This document shows, one piece after another, positions 2,031 to 29,803 of a stretch of 40,776 nucleotides of DNA. The notes under the pieces were generated by a model, which searched no databases, was not told where the DNA came from, and worked only from the letters and a program-made list of their open reading frames with translations. Every line of letters starts with the position of its first letter. Position 1 is the stretch's first letter. The stretch spans positions 1-40,776 of the IMG/VR virus record IMGVR_UViG_3300037755_000375. The stretch is one strand, 5' to 3'. The DNA is from a virus. Lineage: Duplodnaviria; Caudoviricetes. The position numbers and the translations under genes are program-made.

Positions 2031-3557
2031 GTGGCGACCGGCTACGAGACGGAGAAGGATCTGGAATGGCAGCGCCGCAACCGCAAGCAGCGGTTCGGCA
2101 CTAGCACCCTCTCTCACGATGCCGTGGCCTCGCGTCCGCGCATCGCAGACACGATCTACGGTCTGATCCGTGATCCCGACGGCGTCCTCGCGAAGGACCC
2201 CGACGGCTACCGCACGATATATCAAGACGACCAGATCGCCACGTCGCTCCGAAAGCTCACGCTCAAGGTGGCGAACTGCGATTGGAAGTTGACCGGCGAG
2301 GAACCAGACACACAGGCTCTCGCCGCTGCCGCGCGCTCTCTCTGCGTCGGCCTGCCAGGCTGGGACACGATGGTCCGCCAGGCGTGTTACGCGATGGCCG
2401 AGGGTGTGCGAATCATCCGCGTCCTGTGGGAGCCCTGCACGATCAACGGGCACCCCGCCATGCGCCCGGCAAAGTTCGTCGCGCGCGACAAGCGCAAGTA
2501 CCGCCCCGAAGACGCGGAGTGGAAAAAGATCTGGTTCTGCGACGACTTCCAGTCGGCCACGCTGACCAATCGCCCGCCCGAGCAGGAAGAGCCGCGCGAC
2601 TACTACATCATCCCCGTATGGCAGGATGACGAGGAACGGCTCGGCTTCGGCGACGGAGTCGGCGAGCGGCTGTACAAGGTCGCCGTCATCCGACGCGAAC
2701 TGCTGAAACTGTTCTGGGAGGCGATGGAGACGACGATCGGCGGAATCCGCGTCCTCACGTTCGACTTCAACGTCTGGCAGAATCTGCCCGCGTCCGAACA
2801 GACCGCTCTGCGCGAAGCCGCCGTCGATGCGATCAACAACGCCATCAGCTTCGACACGGTCGATCTTCCGCCCGGCACCACATTCCAGATTCACTTCCCA
2901 AGCGCCGAGGCGCTGGAAGCGTTCCGCGCATCGCTCAAGCAGTACCTCGACGAGATGCCGCAGAAGCTGCTACTCGGCACGGTGATGTCCGAAGGCAGCA
3001 GCGAGAAAGGCTCGCTTGGCTTCGGCCTGTACCTCGACCACGAATCGCGCCTCCAGGTGCAGGCGATCGTGGATTGGCTCGCTGAGTCGTTCACGCGCGA
3101 TCTGCTGGGGCAAATCTTCCTCTACAACCCGTGGCTGTACGAGGTCGCGGCGGTCTCACGCGGAACGCCGCTCCCGCGCTACGTCGGGACGGTGCGCGGC
3201 GGAGCCGACCACACCGCTGGCATGGGGCTCGCGCAGCAGCACCGCGGGCACATGCTCAAGACGCAGTACGAGGAACTGACCGGCATCACGATTCCGAGCG
3301 AAGAGCAGATCAGCAACCGCGAGACGATCGAGATTGCCGCACCTGCCGCACCCGCCCCTGCCACTGGTGGCGGATTCGGAAGCGGTGGCCTGTCTGGCGG
3401 AGCCGGTGGTTCCTTCGGCGCACAACCTCCGCCTGTTCCGAAGGCGGCCGCGCCCGGTATCTCTCGCACTGGCCGCGCCGCCGGGCTAACCCGCAACGCG
3501 CCGTGGTGGGCGGGACTCTCGGCAGACGAGCGCACCCGCTACGCGCTGACGGGGTGA
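2031..3557 (+). CDS. Portal protein (Mu gp29/DUF935-like)
   Basis: 508 aa; DDQIATSLRKLTLKV, G-x-G-ERLY, KLLLGTVMSEGSSEKGSLGFG patterns typical of Mu-like portals; followed by gpF. Confidence 0.8.
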   Translation: MATGYETEKDLEWQRRNRKQRFGTSTLSHDAVASRPRIADTIYGLIRDPDGVLAKDPDGYRTIYQDDQIATSLRKLTLKVANCDWKLTGEEPDTQALAAAARSLCVGLPGWDTMVRQACYAMAEGVRIIRVLWEPCTINGHPAMRPAKFVARDKRKYRPEDAEWKKIWFCDDFQSATLTNRPPEQEEPRDYYIIPVWQDDEERLGFGDGVGERLYKVAVIRRELLKLFWEAMETTIGGIRVLTFDFNVWQNLPASEQTALREAAVDAINNAISFDTVDLPPGTTFQIHFPSAEALEAFRASLKQYLDEMPQKLLLGTVMSEGSSEKGSLGFGLYLDHESRLQVQAIVDWLAESFTRDLLGQIFLYNPWLYEVAAVSRGTPLPRYVGTVRGGADHTAGMGLAQQHRGHMLKTQYEELTGITIPSEEQISNRETIEIAAPAAPAPATGGGFGSGGLSGGAGGSFGAQPPPVPKAAAPGISRTGRAAGLTRNAPWWAGLSADERTRYALTG

Positions 3558-3561
3558 CACC

Positions 3562-3813
3562 GTGGCCGATCCGATGGTCCCGGTGTCGAGCTCAATCCTT
3601 CGCGCCGTTGGACATGACGAGGCGAGCCAGACCCTCACGATTCGGTTCGCGTCTGGCGCTGTATACGCCTATCGAGGCGTTCCGCGCGCCACGTTCGATG
3701 CGCTGCTAGCATCCGCGTCGCCAGGCCGATACTTCGGCCAGTACGTGCGGTTCCAGTACACCGCCGACATCGTGACGCCCGCGCCGAAGGACAGCGATGG
3801 CGAATCCGCCTGA
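3562..3813 (+). CDS. KTSC domain protein
   Basis: VSSSILRAVGHDEASQTLTIRFASGAVYAYRGVP...LLASASPGRYF is the KTSC signature. Confidence 0.9.
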   Translation: MADPMVPVSSSILRAVGHDEASQTLTIRFASGAVYAYRGVPRATFDALLASASPGRYFGQYVRFQYTADIVTPAPKDSDGESA

Positions 3814-4696
3814 CGATCCCGCGCTCCCGTTGCTCGGCCCACTGCGCGACAGCCTGCGCGAACTGTTCTCGCTAGAGTTCCGCGGCGCTGCCGAACTGAT
3901 CGCGCCGAAGGATCTGCCGTCGGCTGAGATCAACGCACGCGGGCACGTCGAGCGCGCCGCCGCCGCCATCGCAAGGTCCGCAGCGTTCGCCGACCTCGTA
4001 GGCCGCGTCGAGACGCTGCGTATCGCAGGCATAGACTCCGGGATGCCGGGCATCGTCGGGACGCCGGAATCGTTTGTCACAATGCCGTTCGGCGAGGCGA
4101 TCGAGGCGTTTGCGTCAACGACGGCTATCCATGCTCAGGACCGCGACGAAGTTCTTCGGGCGTACTCGCGCAACGAGTTCGCCATGAAGCCGCAGATTGC
4201 ATTCGAGGTCGTCGAGACGGTCCAACAGCAGATTCACTCGATGTTGCGCGAAGGCGGGACGAAGGACGACTTCGTGAAGTGGGCGCGAGACCTAAACGAA
4301 GGGCACGTCAGCGACGCCTACGCTGAGACGGTGTTCCGCACCGAGGCGACGCGCGCGCAGACGGCCGGCCGCGTCATGCAGTCGTTCTCGGCTGACCTAG
4401 CAGGGTTTGTCGTCGCCTTCATGTACAACAGCGCGCGGACGCAGACCACGCGCGCGAACCACGCCGCGCTCCACGGGATGATGTGGGGCGCGAACCACGT
4501 CGCGTGGGCGAACATCCTTCCGCCGAATGGCTGGAACTGTCAGTGCCGCGTGATCGCGATCACGCGTCCGCAGGCGCGCGCGGAAGAGCGGTTGACGGAC
4601 GACGGCGAGTTCAAGTCGGACGCGTGGCCTGTCCCCGGCGGGCATCCAGACAAGGGCTGGGAGAACAAGCCAGCCCTGAGCGCGTACGGGACTTAG
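3797..4696 (+). CDS. Head morphogenesis protein (Mu gpF/SPP1 gp7-like)
   Basis: AETVFRTE, TRANHAALHG, PPNGWNCQCRV motifs. Confidence 0.9.
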   Translation: MANPPDDPALPLLGPLRDSLRELFSLEFRGAAELIAPKDLPSAEINARGHVERAAAAIARSAAFADLVGRVETLRIAGIDSGMPGIVGTPESFVTMPFGEAIEAFASTTAIHAQDRDEVLRAYSRNEFAMKPQIAFEVVETVQQQIHSMLREGGTKDDFVKWARDLNEGHVSDAYAETVFRTEATRAQTAGRVMQSFSADLAGFVVAFMYNSARTQTTRANHAALHGMMWGANHVAWANILPPNGWNCQCRVIAITRPQARAEERLTDDGEFKSDAWPVPGGHPDKGWENKPALSAYGT

Positions 4697-22189: not shown

Positions 22190-22693
22190 GTGCCTGTCCG
22201 CCTGTTCGCCGACCCGCCCATCGAGTGCCCGTTCTGTGGGGACGGCGACGCCGTCACACGCGAGGTCCACGGGCGTCTCGTCACGTACCACATCAGCTAC
22301 GGTCAGGCGCTCGTGCAGTACACGTGCGGCGGGGCGCTGACGCTGGAGGCGACCTCCACGGGCTGGGCGGCGATCGAAGGCGAGTGCGGTGCGAGCGGGA
22401 AGAGCCTCGCCGACCTCGCTGGTGATCACGCGGAGCGCGTGACGCGTGCGGCGATCGAGTACCGGCGGCTGGCGCGGGCGTCACGCATCGGAGCGGTGCG
22501 ACGAGCCCGAATGATGCGCGCGGCGGCAAAATCTTCTTCTGTCGCCAACGCGCAACCGTGCGGGTTTGCGCGTTCCGGCCGTTCCGACACGACGGAGTCG
22601 GACGGCCCCCGTCAGCCGCGTCTCGACGCGATCGTGGCGCTTAAATACGGCGTGCCCCTGCGCGAGCTCCGGGCGCGGGTCTACGGCGCGTGA
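22190..22693 (+). CDS. Hypothetical protein with CxxC motif
   Basis: CPFC; GGAGG RBS; TTGCAC-N18-TAGGGT promoter-like sequence at 22125-22154. Confidence 0.55.
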   Translation: MPVRLFADPPIECPFCGDGDAVTREVHGRLVTYHISYGQALVQYTCGGALTLEATSTGWAAIEGECGASGKSLADLAGDHAERVTRAAIEYRRLARASRIGAVRRARMMRAAAKSSSVANAQPCGFARSGRSDTTESDGPRQPRLDAIVALKYGVPLRELRARVYGA

Positions 22694-22884
22694 GCGATGA
22701 CGCTCCGGAGGCGACACACGTCGCCGTCTGTGTGCGCTCGGACTGCGGTCAGCGCTTCTACCTCCACGACGCGGATCGCGGCGCGCTCGCGATGTGGCGC
22801 TATTGCCCGCGGTGCGGGTCACAGCTCAGGCTCCGCCGCCCGTCCAATCCAGCTCCATCGCCTGCTCCAGCGTCGTCGCGCTGA
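22690..22884 (+). CDS. Small zinc-ribbon protein
   Basis: CVRSDC...YCPRCG; GTGA coupling. Confidence 0.6.
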   Translation: MSDDAPEATHVAVCVRSDCGQRFYLHDADRGALAMWRYCPRCGSQLRLRRPSNPAPSPAPASSR

Positions 22885-23665
22885 CCGGTACACGCACCAG
22901 CCCAGCGTAGTGCCGCTCGGCGACCACGACGGAGTGCCCGAGGCGGCGCGCGCTGTACCACGGGCCACCGATCGGCGGGGCCATCGCGCAGAGATACGTG
23001 GCGCACGTCTGGCGCAGCCGCTGCCAGGTCCACGCTGGCGCACTGAGCCGATCCACCCGCCGCGCCGCCTTCACCAGCGAGTCGCGGGTGTGCCCGCACA
23101 CCGCCGCGTCGGGATCGGCGTCGCGACCGAGCTGGTCGAGCAGCACCGTGAGCGACGGGCAGACGTCCAGCATCACCAGCCGCGCGCGGCGCGACTTCGA
23201 CGCGCTGGGCGAGACGCGCAGGTGCCCCTCGCGCAGATCAACGTCGCGCCAGCGCAGGCCCAGCAGCTCGCCGCGGCGCATCCCGGTGAGGATCGCCAAG
23301 AGGATCGCCGGCCGGACCGGCGTGTGCTTCGGCGTCTGGCCGTGGTGGCGGCGGCGTGCCTTCGCGGTCTCACCGTGGCCCTTCTCGTCGCGCGTCATCC
23401 TCCACGTCTCGGCGTCGTGGGCGGTGGCGGCAGACAGGAGCGATTTGATCTCGTCTCGGGTGAGGGGTTCGGGTAGCGGCTGATCGATGCGCGGCGACGC
23501 GAGGAGGCGCCGGATGGTGTCGCGATCGACGAGCGGCAGCCACCCGCGATCGCGGCAGTGGTACAGACAGGTGCGGAGCCGCCGCAGATGCGTGGCGGCG
23601 CTGGCGGCTGAGACATCGCGGAGTACGGCGGCGGGTAGTGGTACATTTTGAGCCGGATTCCCCGG

Positions 23666-23956
23666 CTACTGGTCTTCGTCTCGCGTCCGCCTCACCAGTG
23701 CAGCGCGCACCGCGTCAGCCGCTGAGTTGACCGGCGGGATCCCCAGCACCGCCAGCGTCCTCGCCTTCCCGTCGTGCGTCGGTTCCGACCATGCGTAGGC
23801 CTTTGACGCCTTCGGGTGGCCCACGTCGAACACCGACACGTCGCCTTCCCACGCGATCTCGCCTTCCCAGCGTTCAACGACGCGGGCCGTCTCGCGAAAG
23901 ACGGCCCGGCATCCGTGCATGGCTTCTACGACGCGCGCGAGGTTGCTAGTTGGCAT
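23666..23956 (-). CDS. IS passenger gene, hypothetical protein (~96 aa)
   Basis: MPTSNLARVVEAMHGC...WEGDVSVFDVGHPKASKAYAWS...PPVNSAADAVRAAL; start overlaps the upstream passenger's stop. Confidence 0.8.
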   Translation of the reverse strand: MPTSNLARVVEAMHGCRAVFRETARVVERWEGEIAWEGDVSVFDVGHPKASKAYAWSEPTHDGKARTLAVLGIPPVNSAADAVRAALVRRTRDEDQ

Positions 23957-24830
23957 CGCCAGACTTGCCATCCTTCTTTTGCCGCTGAGCCTCCAACGGC
24001 TGCCGAGCGACCGCGCTGGAAATAGGTCCAACCAACGCAAGGAAGGTCTTCAACTCGGCATCGGTCAGGTCATCCGGCAGGTCCAACGGTGCGAACCGCC
24101 CGGTCCCGAGTGGAACCTGAATCGTGTGGTAGCCGGAAGCCGTTGTTGCGCTCATCTTGCGTTGGTCTTCCTTCGGCTTGCCGCCTGCCGGGGGTGGAAT
24201 CTCATCAACCACTCCACCATTGCCGGTTACGGCATCGCCACCCGGGCCGCCCTCTTCATCCTCATCCCCCGGATCGTTTTTGACGACCGGGACATCCGTC
24301 ACATTACTCGGCTTAGGGGGGTTAGCAAACTCAAACGTTGCGCTGAGATCGGCGATGAACGCGTTGACAGACTGCCTGTTGATCTTCCACTCCAGTTGCA
24401 GATCAGTCTCCAGCGCCTTGTTGGACGGCAGCACACCGTGATACCGCGCCCAGATATCAGCGTAGATCTTTGGGGAGATCGCCATCTTCGCCAAAATCTC
24501 TTGGCGATCCGCCGCTCCCAAGAGCACCCGCAGAGCCTCATCCGATAGCCGCTCGCGCCGCTCATCTCCGCGTCCATCAGTCTCTAGCAACCCGAACGTC
24601 CGCAGGGCCGCGACGGTTGAGTTCCACGAGCTGCCCTTGGGCGTCATCTCCAAGTGGCTCGCTAGTACCTCCGGGCGCACCCAATGGCGGCCATTGCCCT
24701 CCTTGTCGTAGATCGCCTGCGCGCGCGCAATGGCCTTCTCCAGCGTGATTTGAGGGTAGTTCGGGCTGCGGTGCCGCGGCTTCTTCTGGGACGCGACCTT
24801 GCCGGATTCCGGCGCCTCTGTCTTGCTCAT
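23946..24830 (-). CDS. IS passenger gene, winged-helix-like protein (294 aa)
   Basis: RSPNYPQITLEKAI...LASHLEMTPKGSSWNSTVAALRTFGLLE is wHTH-like; GGAG RBS. Confidence 0.8.
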   Translation of the reverse strand: MSKTEAPESGKVASQKKPRHRSPNYPQITLEKAIARAQAIYDKEGNGRHWVRPEVLASHLEMTPKGSSWNSTVAALRTFGLLETDGRGDERRERLSDEALRVLLGAADRQEILAKMAISPKIYADIWARYHGVLPSNKALETDLQLEWKINRQSVNAFIADLSATFEFANPPKPSNVTDVPVVKNDPGDEDEEGGPGGDAVTGNGGVVDEIPPPAGGKPKEDQRKMSATTASGYHTIQVPLGTGRFAPLDLPDDLTDAELKTFLALVGPISSAVARQPLEAQRQKKDGKSGDAN

Positions 24831-24859
24831 GTGCTACACTCCAGTTGTGAGATTGGTTG

Positions 24860-24931
24860 TGGTGGAGGCGAAGGGAATCGAACCCTCGGGGCAGGATGTA
24901 AACTCGCGCCCCCGAAGCCATTCGCGCCCCC
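24860..24931 (-). ncRNA. 72-nt tRNA-like RNA resembling the tmRNA tRNA-like domain (G3.U70, ACCA)
   Basis: GGGGGCG/CGCCTCC-ACCA acceptor; GAGGG-TTCGATT-CCCTT T-arm; no D stem (CGAATGGCTTCG); central GGGGC...GCCCC stem. Confidence 0.75.
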
Positions 24932-25108
24932 AGCAAACAACCTTTCTCCGAATGCGAGCCCCGGTTACCGCCGGGGCTCGTTGTCCATGCGCGAAATATG
25001 ACGGCGAGAATTCAACGGCGCAACAGCTAAATTCGAACGTTACCGGCTGGCTTATAGCCGCGCGTGCGGTATGCTTTTTACGGAAGCGACACCCGTTAGG
25101 AGATTGCC

Positions 25109-25273
25109 GTGGCGAACATCCTGAAGGCGGCGGTTTCGATGCACTTCGGCTACTACAACTTTTGCCGCATCCACCAGACGCTGAAGGCCACGCCCGCGAT
25201 GGCGGCTGGCGTCACGGATCGGATCTGGACCGTCGGCGATCTACTCGACGCCGCCCCGGCCAAAGCCGCGTGA
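25109..25273 (+). pseudogene. Internally deleted IS1-family transposase (54 aa)
   Basis: AGGAG RBS, then MANIL-KAAVSMHFGYYNFCRIHQTLKATPAMAAGVTDRIWTVGDLL, the characteristic C-terminus of this transposase group; ends next to IRR. Confidence 0.85.
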
Positions 25274-25724
25274 CGATTTCTCAAACTGTACCACTACCCG
25301 GCGGCGCGCAGCTCGGCGAGGTGTGCGCGCGTGAGGGCGTCGAGGCCCCTGGCTTTGGATCGCTCGGCCCACCGGGTGAGGTGCGCGAGCGATCCGCGAT
25401 AGGCGGCGACGGTGGTGGCGCGGTGGTCTGCCGCGAGCGTGCTGATCCACGCGTCGACGGCGGCGGCGATCGTCTCGGGTCGTCGTCGGTCGAGCGTCCC
25501 GCCGTAGATGGCCTGCTGCTGGTCCTGGATGCGCTCGGCGAGGATGATGGCGCGCTCGCGTCGCTCACGCTCGGTGCTGCAGAGTGGCGGCCCGGGCAGG
25601 ACCTCCTCGCGGCGCTTTGCGGACTCGGGGTCGCGCCAGCGGAGGTAGTAGCTGGCGAGCCCGCTGCGCGCGACGCGGCGGATGATTGTGACGCCTGGAT
25701 GGACTCTGTTTTGGCGGCGTCCCA

Positions 25725-25994
25725 CGACTCACCTGATGACTCACCCTATTGCGTCACCATGTGCGACCTTTGGCGACTTCTCACGACCGATCCGAGATAG
25801 CGACCCGCGTGGTTGTGCGGGTTCGGCCTGGGCGGCGGTTTCGGGGGCGGCCCGACTCACTTTCACACGGAAGGGGTCGCAGGTTCGAGTCCTGCTGCGC
25901 CCACCAGAAGAACGGCCCGCTGTCTCACTCCGAGGCGGCGGGCCGTTCGCGTTCTCGGTGCGACTCACCTCCTGACTCACCCTATCGCGTCGCC
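25725..25994. other. attP: attP: tRNA-Val(CAC) 3' half as core (25862-25906) flanked by arm-type repeats
   Basis: ttCACacggaaggggtcgcaggttcgagtcctgctgcgcccacca; 34-bp imperfect direct repeat with tandem GACTCACC at 25725-25758 and 25961-25994; adjacent to int start. Confidence 0.88.
25910..25948 (+). terminator. Hairpin downstream of the tRNA fragment in attP
   Basis: gaacggcccgc...gcgggccgttc perfect 11-bp stem. Confidence 0.65.
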
Positions 25995-28388: not shown

Positions 28389-28734
28389 CCGCGACACCCT
28401 GCGCGTCGCGATGGCGTGCGGATCGCGCGACGCCTCGGCTGTCCTCGCTGACCTCGCCGCCGAGGGCGGACTCGCCGCCGCGAGCGCGGAGGCCGCGCTC
28501 GCGCTCGCGGAATCGACACCCGACTCCGACTCCGGCTACGGCTACGGCTACGGCTACGGCGACGGCGACGGCTACGGCTACGGCGACGGCTACGGCGACG
28601 GCAACGGCAACGGCTACGGCTACGGCTACGGCGACGGCTACGGCTACGGCGACGGCGACGGCAACGGCTACGGCGACGGCAACGGCTACGGCAACGGCGA
28701 CGGCTACGGCAACGGCAACGGCGGTGCCAGATGA
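28381..28734 (+). CDS. Gly-(Tyr/Asp/Asn) repeat protein
   Basis: About 31 GGC-[T/G/A]AC hexamers at 28534-28722. Confidence 0.75.
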   Translation: MDSRDTLRVAMACGSRDASAVLADLAAEGGLAAASAEAALALAESTPDSDSGYGYGYGYGDGDGYGYGDGYGDGNGNGYGYGYGDGYGYGDGDGNGYGDGNGYGNGDGYGNGNGGAR

Positions 28735-29057
28735 GCGCCGACACACCCGCCACCACTCCCGCACCCGCGAGCCGGGTCGAGCTGCTGCTCGCGGAGATCC
28801 GCGACGCGATTAGCTCGCCCGTGCGCCGACCGCCGCGCCTGCTGAGCGCCGAGGAGGCCCGCGCGTACCTACACGTGGGCGCCTACGTCTGGCGGGGGAT
28901 CGTCGATCGGGGCGAGGTCCCCGAGGTGCGCCCGATCCCCGCCCACGCGATGCCCTACGGCGAGGGCGAGCAGCGCACCGCTCCGGGCACGGTGCGGTAC
29001 GACATCCGCGACCTCGACGCCTGGATCGACTCGCACAAGCGCGCAAGGGGGGCCTGA
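28731..29057 (+). CDS. Excisionase-like HTH_17 protein
   Basis: RLLSAEEARAYLHV...VRYDIRDLDAWI. Confidence 0.8.
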   Translation: MSADTPATTPAPASRVELLLAEIRDAISSPVRRPPRLLSAEEARAYLHVGAYVWRGIVDRGEVPEVRPIPAHAMPYGEGEQRTAPGTVRYDIRDLDAWIDSHKRARGA

Positions 29058-29704
29058 TGGACGCGAGCGATCGCCACCGCCTGAATGCCGACCTCGCCGA
29101 CCGAACCATCGCCCTCGGGATCGACCCTGGCACGCGGCGGCTCGGCTGGGCGGTTGTGAGCTGGGGCCCGCTCTGCGGCTACGGCCCGATCGACGACGGC
29201 GTGCTCACGCTGTCCGGCCCGATGGGCGACCGGTTGCGCGCCGTCCGCGAGCTGATCGCCAGCCTGATCGAGACGCGGAAGCCACACGAGGTGGCGCTGG
29301 AGCGGATGTTCCACCACCCCAAGCGGGGCGCCCACGCGACGCTGGCGCTGGGCAAGGTCACCGGGGTGATCCAGGAGGTCTGCGCGAGCCTGGACGCCTA
29401 CCAGGGCCAGTACCCGGGCCGTGAGGGAACGCCGGTCGTCCAGATGGCGCCGATGGAGTGGCGGCGGGCGGTCACGGGATCGGGGGCCAGCTCGCACGCC
29501 GAGACCGACCGCATCACCCGGCTCCAGATTGCGTCCGCTGCCTCCCCGCTGCGTCCGAGGGGCGGACTGGACCACGAACGGGTAGACGCCCGCGGGATCG
29601 CGCTGGCGGGGCTGTGGCGCGTTTGCGGGACGGTGTCGCAAGCGGAGATCGCGGCTGCGAAGCGCGGGAACCCGCGCCATCACGCGAGGGCCGCGCCCCC
29701 TTGA
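29057..29704 (+). CDS. ruvC: RuvC-like Holliday junction resolvase
   Basis: IALGIDPGTRRLGWAVV, EVALERMF, EWRRAVTGSG, DHERVDARGIALA. Confidence 0.9.
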   Translation: MDASDRHRLNADLADRTIALGIDPGTRRLGWAVVSWGPLCGYGPIDDGVLTLSGPMGDRLRAVRELIASLIETRKPHEVALERMFHHPKRGAHATLALGKVTGVIQEVCASLDAYQGQYPGREGTPVVQMAPMEWRRAVTGSGASSHAETDRITRLQIASAASPLRPRGGLDHERVDARGIALAGLWRVCGTVSQAEIAAAKRGNPRHHARAAPP

Positions 29705-29727: not shown

Positions 29728-29803
29728 TGTGGGGTGGAGCAGATGGTAGCTCACCGGTATCATAAGCCGGAGGCCGCAGGTTCGATCCCTGCCCCCGCAA
29801 CCA
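29728..29803 (+). tRNA. tRNA-Met(CAT), initiator-like scaffold with atypical features
   Basis: Full cloverleaf: TGTGGGG/CCCCGCA, GAGC/GCTC, CCGGT-ATCATAA-GCCGG, GCAGG-TTCGATC-CCTGC, encoded ACCA. Confidence 0.9.

Follow-up and report, generated by a model that had tools for sequence, protein, structure and literature searches.

Insertion sequences of the IS1 and IS1595 families that carry passenger genes (transporter IS) have short inverted repeats starting with GG, an 8-bp target duplication, and their cargo between the two ends. The only tag-less tmRNAs that we found in print are the 'TLD only' tmRNA of mycobacteriophage DS6A (PMC4131195) and those encoded by two genes, each about 65 bp long, in plastids of Mallomonadaceae (PMC11915505). 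In tmRNA, the SmpB pocket is made up of A15, U17 and A334, the last forming part of the pocket for Trp122 of SmpB, and SmpB stacks on C18-G19 (PMC8363625). In allo-tRNAs the acceptor branch is 8/4 or 9/3, and both a D stem and a long variable arm are present; their anticodons are diverse, and they lie near transposon and toxin-antitoxin genes (Mukai 2017, PMC5389517). Those with G3:U70 translated amber codons in E. coli, whereas six allo-tRNA(UAU) variants gave no suppression and a G-1 'tRNA1' was charged yet unused (PMC5389517). D-armless tRNAs that translate are known from mitochondria, where a loop replaces the D arm of tRNA-Ser(AGY) (PMC7609411).

Here we describe a 72-nt tRNA-like RNA that is carried by an IS1-family element in a phage genome. 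The closest systems in print are the allo-tRNAs and the DS6A tmRNA, and by its sequence the RNA lacks defining features of both.

An IS1-family element splits the phage integrase

The window, the whole stretch of DNA analyzed (40,776 bases), is an entire virus record with direct terminal repeats. A non-autonomous IS1-family element occupies positions 23634..25298, with a GC content of 0.62 as compared to 0.68 in the remainder of the phage. It is bounded by 19-nt inverted repeats with one mismatch (23634-23652 and 25280-25298) and by an 8-bp target duplication (23626-23633 and 25299-25306), and these features, together with an IS1-type transposase of which only a remnant is present, place it in the IS1 family. 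To its left is the C-terminal part of a tyrosine integrase (22826..23633, minus strand; PF00589, E 2e-10), and to its right the N-terminal part (25307..25725, minus strand; weak match to PF02899, E 0.015). In silico removal of the element and one copy of the duplication restores a single uninterrupted integrase frame of 408 aa; the element has therefore split the phage integrase, and the phage may thus be unable to integrate on its own. A sequence-only reading of this DNA had proposed that the RNA is carried by an IS, and the inverted repeats, duplication and restored frame bear this out. A separate assembly, of a possible source run, is identical to the window over 22500-25903. No IS-free allele was seen in one DNA run, and no holder of the RNA appeared in a listing of sequencing runs; neither observation carries weight either way.

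The transposase remnant (54 codons, 25109..25273, plus strand, identified by tblastn and translation) matches the C-terminus of an intact IS1 transposase at another locus, L076 (tblastn, E 7e-10). It is internally deleted, such that a few codons, apparently N-terminal in our reading of the sequence, run on in frame into the C-terminal tail. Divergent from it lie all three items of cargo: the tRNA-like RNA, a gene for a 294-aa protein (23946..24830, minus strand), and a small ORF (23666..24040, minus strand), which probably starts at 23956, overlapping the stop of the 294-aa gene, and whose homologue in L076 adjoins the intact transposase. Between the RNA and the start of the divergent transposase, the leader contains a perfect 10-bp hairpin (24955..24980); no sigma-70 consensus promoter was found. 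Like known transporter IS, the element has short inverted repeats starting with GG, an 8-bp duplication and internal cargo; it differs from them in that the cargo includes a tRNA-like gene, and the published literature that we searched held no paper on such a gene as IS1 or IS1595 cargo.

We note that the 3' half of an apparent tRNA-Val(CAC), labeled Pro by ARAGORN, lies next to the integrase (25855-25906) and is flanked by 34-nt direct repeats (25725-25758 and 25961-25994); the region is likely attP. Elsewhere in the window are a tRNA-Met (29728-29803), a Gly-Tyr/Asp/Asn repeat ORF (28485-28758) and a RuvC-like gene (29057-29704).

An alanine acceptor without D stem or variable loop

The RNA lies at 24860..24931 on the minus strand, and the sequence quoted for it in the sequence-only reading matches that strand exactly from 24931 to 24860. 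Its acceptor stem has 7 bp with G3.U70 and is followed by A73 and an encoded CCA, as expected from the alanine identity that had been claimed; G3.U70 with A73 is the signal for AlaRS (PMC5389517). The 12-nt D region (24913..24924) contains GG and the SmpB-contact nucleotides U17-C18-G19 (contacts from PMC8363625) and has a G in place of the tmRNA A20. A single arm (24888..24912), joined directly to the T stem, presents by local pairing a 7-nt loop, UU-UAC-AU, with a Val-type anticodon, UAC, at 24900-24898. This arm has one A.C mismatch and an alternative loop register, GUUUACA, that scores 6 as compared to 7, and its 8-nt 3' strand is of the shortest class (3/46) in the family described below. 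The T arm (24871..24887), recognized from sequence and the Rfam match, is canonical, with 5 bp and a 7-nt loop, UUCGAUU. The acceptor/T branch is thus 7/5, with all 12 pairs and both ends intact. With neither D stem nor variable loop the RNA does not form a cloverleaf, and so is not a canonical tRNA-Ala or tRNA-Val.

Rfam ranks tmRNA above tRNA for this RNA (47.9 bits against a cut-off of 47; E 7e-17). The alignment covers both model ends, in agreement with the earlier description of the ends as tmRNA-like, and has 21 nt in place of 318 model positions. ARAGORN called no gene at 24860..24931. The tag reading frame and pseudoknot region of a standard tmRNA are absent from the Rfam alignment, and there is no second tmRNA match elsewhere in the window. 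In BLAST searches the RNA gave no more than T-arm or partial matches among cultured phages, and the same was true of a relative searched against plasmids. The folding energy is in itself unremarkable (z -1.4), and we judge the RNA to be real because covariance scores, rather than folding energy, support it.

A family of D-stemless RNAs

A metagenome scan in which the linker A of tmRNA was forbidden yielded 91 loci, 90 of them re-found by script. Duplicates, tag-less tmRNAs, ordinary tRNAs and attachment fragments were set aside, and 50 distinct sequences with the plan of the window RNA were chosen by eye, one of which (L242) was later moved to the controls. A covariance model, R1, made from 42 family sequences with the window RNA left out, scores the window RNA at 56.4 bits (E 1.3e-10); held-out family members score 57-73 bits and the window's own tRNA-Met 27 bits. 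The window RNA has no linker, an anticodon-type loop and a length within the family range, and on R1 it scores above the other groups; among the 46 members it ranks 44th by score.

The family alignment, 46 rows of 69-74 nt including the window RNA, shows a common plan: between an alanine acceptor and a canonical T arm lie a stemless D loop and a single arm with an anticodon-type loop, and the variable loop is missing. The 7/5 branch is seen in the window RNA and in 46/51 parsed sequences, the other five having one T-stem mismatch, and a D-region hairpin is predicted in 1/46 members. In these 46 rows, aligned by fitting to the model, pairing reaches 99.7% in the acceptor and 98.3% in the T stem as compared to 66-78% in the middle helices, and the middle arm beats shuffles at z<-1.64 in 17/46 members. 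Compensatory changes occur at pairs that the search pattern left free (5:68 in the acceptor, 49:65 and 50:64 in the T stem); the covariation score is 0.455 versus 0.142 in shuffles, and none of 500 shuffles, which ignore kinship, reaches 0.455. The pattern forced G3.U70 and the missing linker A, whereas the absence of a 5' GA (0/46) was not forced. When the acceptor was left largely free, a scan gave 67 loci, 14 of them fully paired; G3.U70 is present in 11/14, and the remaining three resemble D-armed tRNAs. Family counts include close relatives and hence are not numbers of independent events.

The exact family pattern occurs in none of 401 genomes from the phylum of G001 and 401 from the phylum of G002, and only once among viral contigs; its absence from the 802 sampled genomes fits sporadic cargo. 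The published literature searched, with subscription papers mostly outside its scope, contained no description of an alanine acceptor lacking both D stem and variable loop. By these sequence comparisons the window RNA is a real, intact, if low-scoring, member of an apparently unpublished class.

The loop of the single arm resembles an anticodon loop. Among the 46 rows, C32 is present in 35, U33 in 40 and the 3' A in 44; C occupies position 37 in 11, and local pairing gives a loop of 7 nt in 23/46 and 8 nt in 23/46. Between the loop and the T stem, where no variable loop is present, the strand measures 8-11 nt; its modal length of 10 nt equals that of positions 39-48 in a standard tRNA. There are at least 20 different triplets among the 46 members, including those for Asp, Gly, Cys, Ile(AUA), Val, stop codons and others, with Ala being rare. 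Three members that are 89-93% identical (L280:301-370, L235:1302-1372 and L265:2998-3068) have UCA, UUA and CUA, the three stop anticodons; these are candidate natural opal, ochre and amber suppressors, respectively, and the sequences of the trio point to codon reading.

The family is distinct from tag-less tmRNAs

A scan for tag-less tmRNAs, using a pattern of tmRNA ends and a short middle (GHTTCG), gave 38 viral and 27 genome loci. This pattern, the one with which the genome collection was scanned, shuts out most D-stemless family members, and its blanks are uninformative for that family. About 10 genome matches (attachment fragments and odd short hairpins) were excluded from the tag-less set, which comprises L002-L039, most of L040-L066, and a subset of L079-L197. 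Most loci from the tag-less scan encode RNAs of 64-90 nt with UUCGAC, a stem and a 3-nt linker. Such TLD-only tmRNAs are common in uncultured phages and, unlike the D-stemless family, reside in phage genomes, often within tRNA arrays; unannotated matches are also present in the Streptomyces phages BRock, LuckySocke and GiJojo.

The D-stemless family resembles the DS6A and plastid RNAs in size, in lacking a tag frame, and in having an alanine acceptor, a T arm and a D loop that contains UUCG but forms no stem, and the window RNA itself has the G3.U70 acceptor, T arm and stemless D loop of a TLD-only tmRNA. The two groups differ at the joint. A 5' GA[C/U] is found in 42/45 distinct tag-less copies versus 0/46 family members, and a linker with a central A (A334) in 45/45 tag-less copies; the window RNA lacks this joint altogether, both A20 and the 3-nt linker holding A334. 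TLD-only tmRNAs thus keep a GA...xAx joint and a variable middle (29-55 nt) without an anticodon loop, whereas the family lacks the joint, has an anticodon-type loop and is tight in total length. Covariance models separate the groups reciprocally: on R2, built for tag-less tmRNAs, the window RNA scores 37.5 bits versus 45-77 for 15 held-out phage copies (DS6A, 64.4), and on R1 15 held-out tag-less tmRNAs score 42-53 bits, below the window RNA. With no GA/xAx joint and this R2 score, we dropped the interpretation of the window RNA as a DS6A-type TLD-only tmRNA. Since U17-C18-G19 is kept but A20 and the A334 linker are gone, SmpB binding is doubtful, and the earlier proposal of a mini-tmRNA with an SmpB-binding TLD is weakened to that extent. 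One locus, L262:2998-3076 (minus strand), looks intermediate, with a tag-less-type middle, no GA/xAx joint, and scores of 59.7 bits on R1 and 53.8 on R2.

Association with IS elements and with other unusual tRNAs

At 14/43 distinct loci with flanks, a transposase of the IS1 or IS1595 type is found no more than about 2.5 kb from the RNA, versus 0/12 non-family loci of the metagenome scan (Fisher p 0.025; p 4e-5 against 0/39 when 27 genome-scan loci are added). Many of the contigs are short, and seven loci whose flanks were 300 nt were excluded. L205 is a complete IS1595 element with inverted repeats and an 8-bp duplication, which encloses a transposase, a passenger ORF, a family RNA and a GGU tRNA. 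In L240 two family RNAs (293-365 and 371-441) stand in tandem ahead of an IS1595 transposase, and the copy found by the model alone also keeps G3.U70. Other members lie among housekeeping genes (L208, L221, L276, L277). Genes for HTH-type proteins are frequent neighbors: HARE-HTH in L201 and L240, DUF5343 in L272, a TrmB-like protein in L257, and the 294-aa family in L261. The L206 ORF at 3344-4078 encodes a passenger protein and not a transposase.

The 294-aa protein of the window has an N-terminal winged helix that is confident in the predicted structure (pLDDT 80.9); the family to which the protein belongs is unnamed and large, with 6422 representatives at E<=0.001. It has no Pfam match, and fold searches return common winged-helix matches only, all weak, over residues 22-190 (MarR-type, Z 7.7; FokI, Z 7.4). 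Its ATG at 24830 is 29 nt from the end of the RNA, as the sequence-only reading had stated, but that reading's further suggestion of an RNA-plus-protein cassette found no support: no window-type RNA, and no R1 score above 23 bits, was found at the 11 loci reached through the protein (L070, L072, L073, L075, L290-L294, L298, L300), and a homologue is present at 1/90 metagenome RNA loci (L261), upstream and divergent. A fixed cassette is thus not supported, and the protein appears to be a fellow passenger, possibly with a repressor role. We note that its closest homologue, in L291 (41%), has an odd long-arm tRNA (L291:2471-2563) upstream and divergent.

Family members also adjoin other odd tRNAs, some of allo-tRNA-like type such as the GGU tRNA of L205. 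Separately, L212:1713-1787 (minus strand), which follows a family RNA at a distance of about 730 nt downstream, encodes a complete cloverleaf tRNA; its acceptor is of the alanine type, and its 8-nt Asp-type loop also occurs in several family members.

Like the family, allo-tRNAs have a highly variable anticodon (UAU, GUC and stop types) that does not follow the acceptor identity, and they occur near transposon genes; some of them have G3:U70. The window RNA likewise combines an uncoupled anticodon with a mobile-element context. In contrast, it has neither an 8/4 or 9/3 branch nor a long D stem and variable arm, and the family has a 7/5 branch with neither D stem nor variable loop. Equating the family with Mukai's tRNA0 is unsupported, as the 24 tRNA0 rows shown in the part consulted differ in sequence (PMC5389517); of six family motifs compared with the text of that paper's supplement, as far as it was available, 4/6 are unmatched and 2/6 fall in unrelated rows. 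Mitochondrial tRNA-Ser(AGY) also has a loop in place of the D arm but, unlike the family, is organellar, has serine identity, keeps a variable loop, and has an anticodon that fits its amino acid (PMC7609411). The window RNA would function like an alanine allo-tRNA and has the look of a tmRNA head.

Possible functions

The reading that we favor, at a little short of an even chance, is that the window RNA is a D-armless miscoding or suppressor tRNA that places alanine at valine codons, an option already raised as an Ala-for-Val misreader and retained here above an SmpB decoy, a nuclease decoy, a processing signal and decay. The RNA would be transcribed and trimmed by RNase P, host AlaRS would likely load alanine through G3.U70 and A73, and EF-Tu would likely carry the product, the 12-bp acceptor/T branch being of a kind that suits EF-Tu (PMC5389517). 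One continuous arm would stand in for the D and anticodon helices, with the UAC loop reading valine codons so that alanine is inserted; in relatives, the alanine would go to Asp, Gly, Cys, Ile(AUA) or stop codons. More speculatively, the element might gain from low-level mistranslation or read-through, or from a toxic burst once the RNA is derepressed.

We favor miscoding because an arm that reaches the decoding site would best explain the fixed arm length, the U33-type loop with its C32 and 3' A columns, and the stop-anticodon trio. The covariation at 5:68, 49:65 and 50:64, the tight length, the loop-to-T-stem strand of standard-tRNA length, the retention of G3.U70 where the acceptor was largely free and in the L240 tandem copy, and the adjoining odd tRNAs are consistent with it, and the amber-translating G3:U70 allo-tRNAs provide a precedent (PMC5389517). 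Against it, half the members have 8-nt loops and 11 have C37, each a poor fit to normal decoding; pairing of the middle arm is incomplete, and this arm beats shuffles in a minority; the window copy has the A.C mismatch, the shortest 3' strand and a near-equal second register; the SmpB-site U17-C18-G19 is kept; and some allo-tRNAs are inactive in suppression or translation (PMC5389517).

The retained D-loop nucleotides would fit a tag-less tmRNA derivative that binds SmpB, either titrating it and blocking trans-translation or rescuing ribosomes without tagging, as proposed for DS6A. The Rfam match, the resemblance of the D loop to those of phage tag-less tmRNAs with C18 and G19 kept, the intermediate L262, and the reported inhibition of tmRNA by a similar molecule (Mao 2009, cited in PMC4131195) are in its favor. 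We nonetheless consider it unlikely, given the loss of A334, its linker and the 5' GA[C/U], and the low R2 score, and it leaves the conserved anticodon-type loop unexplained.

The diversity of triplets, half of them in 8-nt loops, could alternatively reflect a charged, non-translating decoy or sensor that shows its variable loop to tRNA-cutting toxins or defense nucleases and so protects or addicts the element's host. Translation-inactive allo-tRNAs near toxin-antitoxin genes (PMC5389517) and single loci beside HepT/nucleotidyltransferase (L256) and Abi_alpha (L259) are compatible with this, but a recurring nuclease neighbor is absent among 171 flanking ORFs scanned, the UUA anticodon mimics no ordinary host tRNA, and no window protein has a PADLOC match, such that this reading too seems improbable.

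More doubtful still is an extension of the favored reading, in which IS elements spread D-armless, tmRNA-derived tRNAs with a regained anticodon as inducible poisons or code-benders that place alanine at Val, Asp, Gly or stop codons, the winged-helix passenger restraining them and the 8-nt loops of some perhaps presenting four-base anticodons. If true, this would be a toxin-antitoxin or abortive-infection module with a tRNA as the toxin; we know of no natural D-armless translating tRNA in bacteria, and it would be the first.

A cis-acting tRNA-like signal, processed by RNase P and 3' nucleases to mature or tune a downstream mRNA, is a remote prospect. The window RNA does lie just ahead of a passenger gene, and the RNA is co-oriented with a downstream IS transposase in L201, L203, L218, L228, L240, L257 and L272; however, transposase and RNA point away from or toward each other in L205, L206, L250, L255, L265 and the window, the spacing ranges from 29 to several hundred nt, and such a signal needs neither G3.U70 nor an anticodon loop. 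Least credible is that the RNA is an artifact of assembly, the remnant of an attachment site, or a tRNA or tmRNA in decay, for although the element's transposase is lost and the window copy scores near the bottom of the family, both ends and 12 pairs are intact, the family shows compensatory change, the pattern-caught attachment fragments (L046, L058, L063, L066) differ in appearance and have full tmRNA genes nearby, and the separate assembly agrees without a difference.

If the miscoding reading is correct, IS elements in bacteria can bend the code of the host through a mobile tRNA family whose identity is alanine and whose anticodons change; the family would also offer compact suppressor scaffolds and provide a possible link from tmRNA to tRNA architecture. 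The family is probably under-counted because standard tools miss or mislabel its members, ARAGORN making no call and Rfam reporting 'tmRNA'. Other compact RNAs were seen in the scans: three viral RNAs of 72 nt (L302, L312, L338) have an alanine acceptor, a very short 5' linker and a CUAG/CUGG loop, forming another compact variant, and RNAs of 59-60 nt (L053:3501-3557, L051, L061) combine a T arm and one hairpin with an acceptor that is alanine-like, that of L053 sitting within an array of 19 tRNAs.
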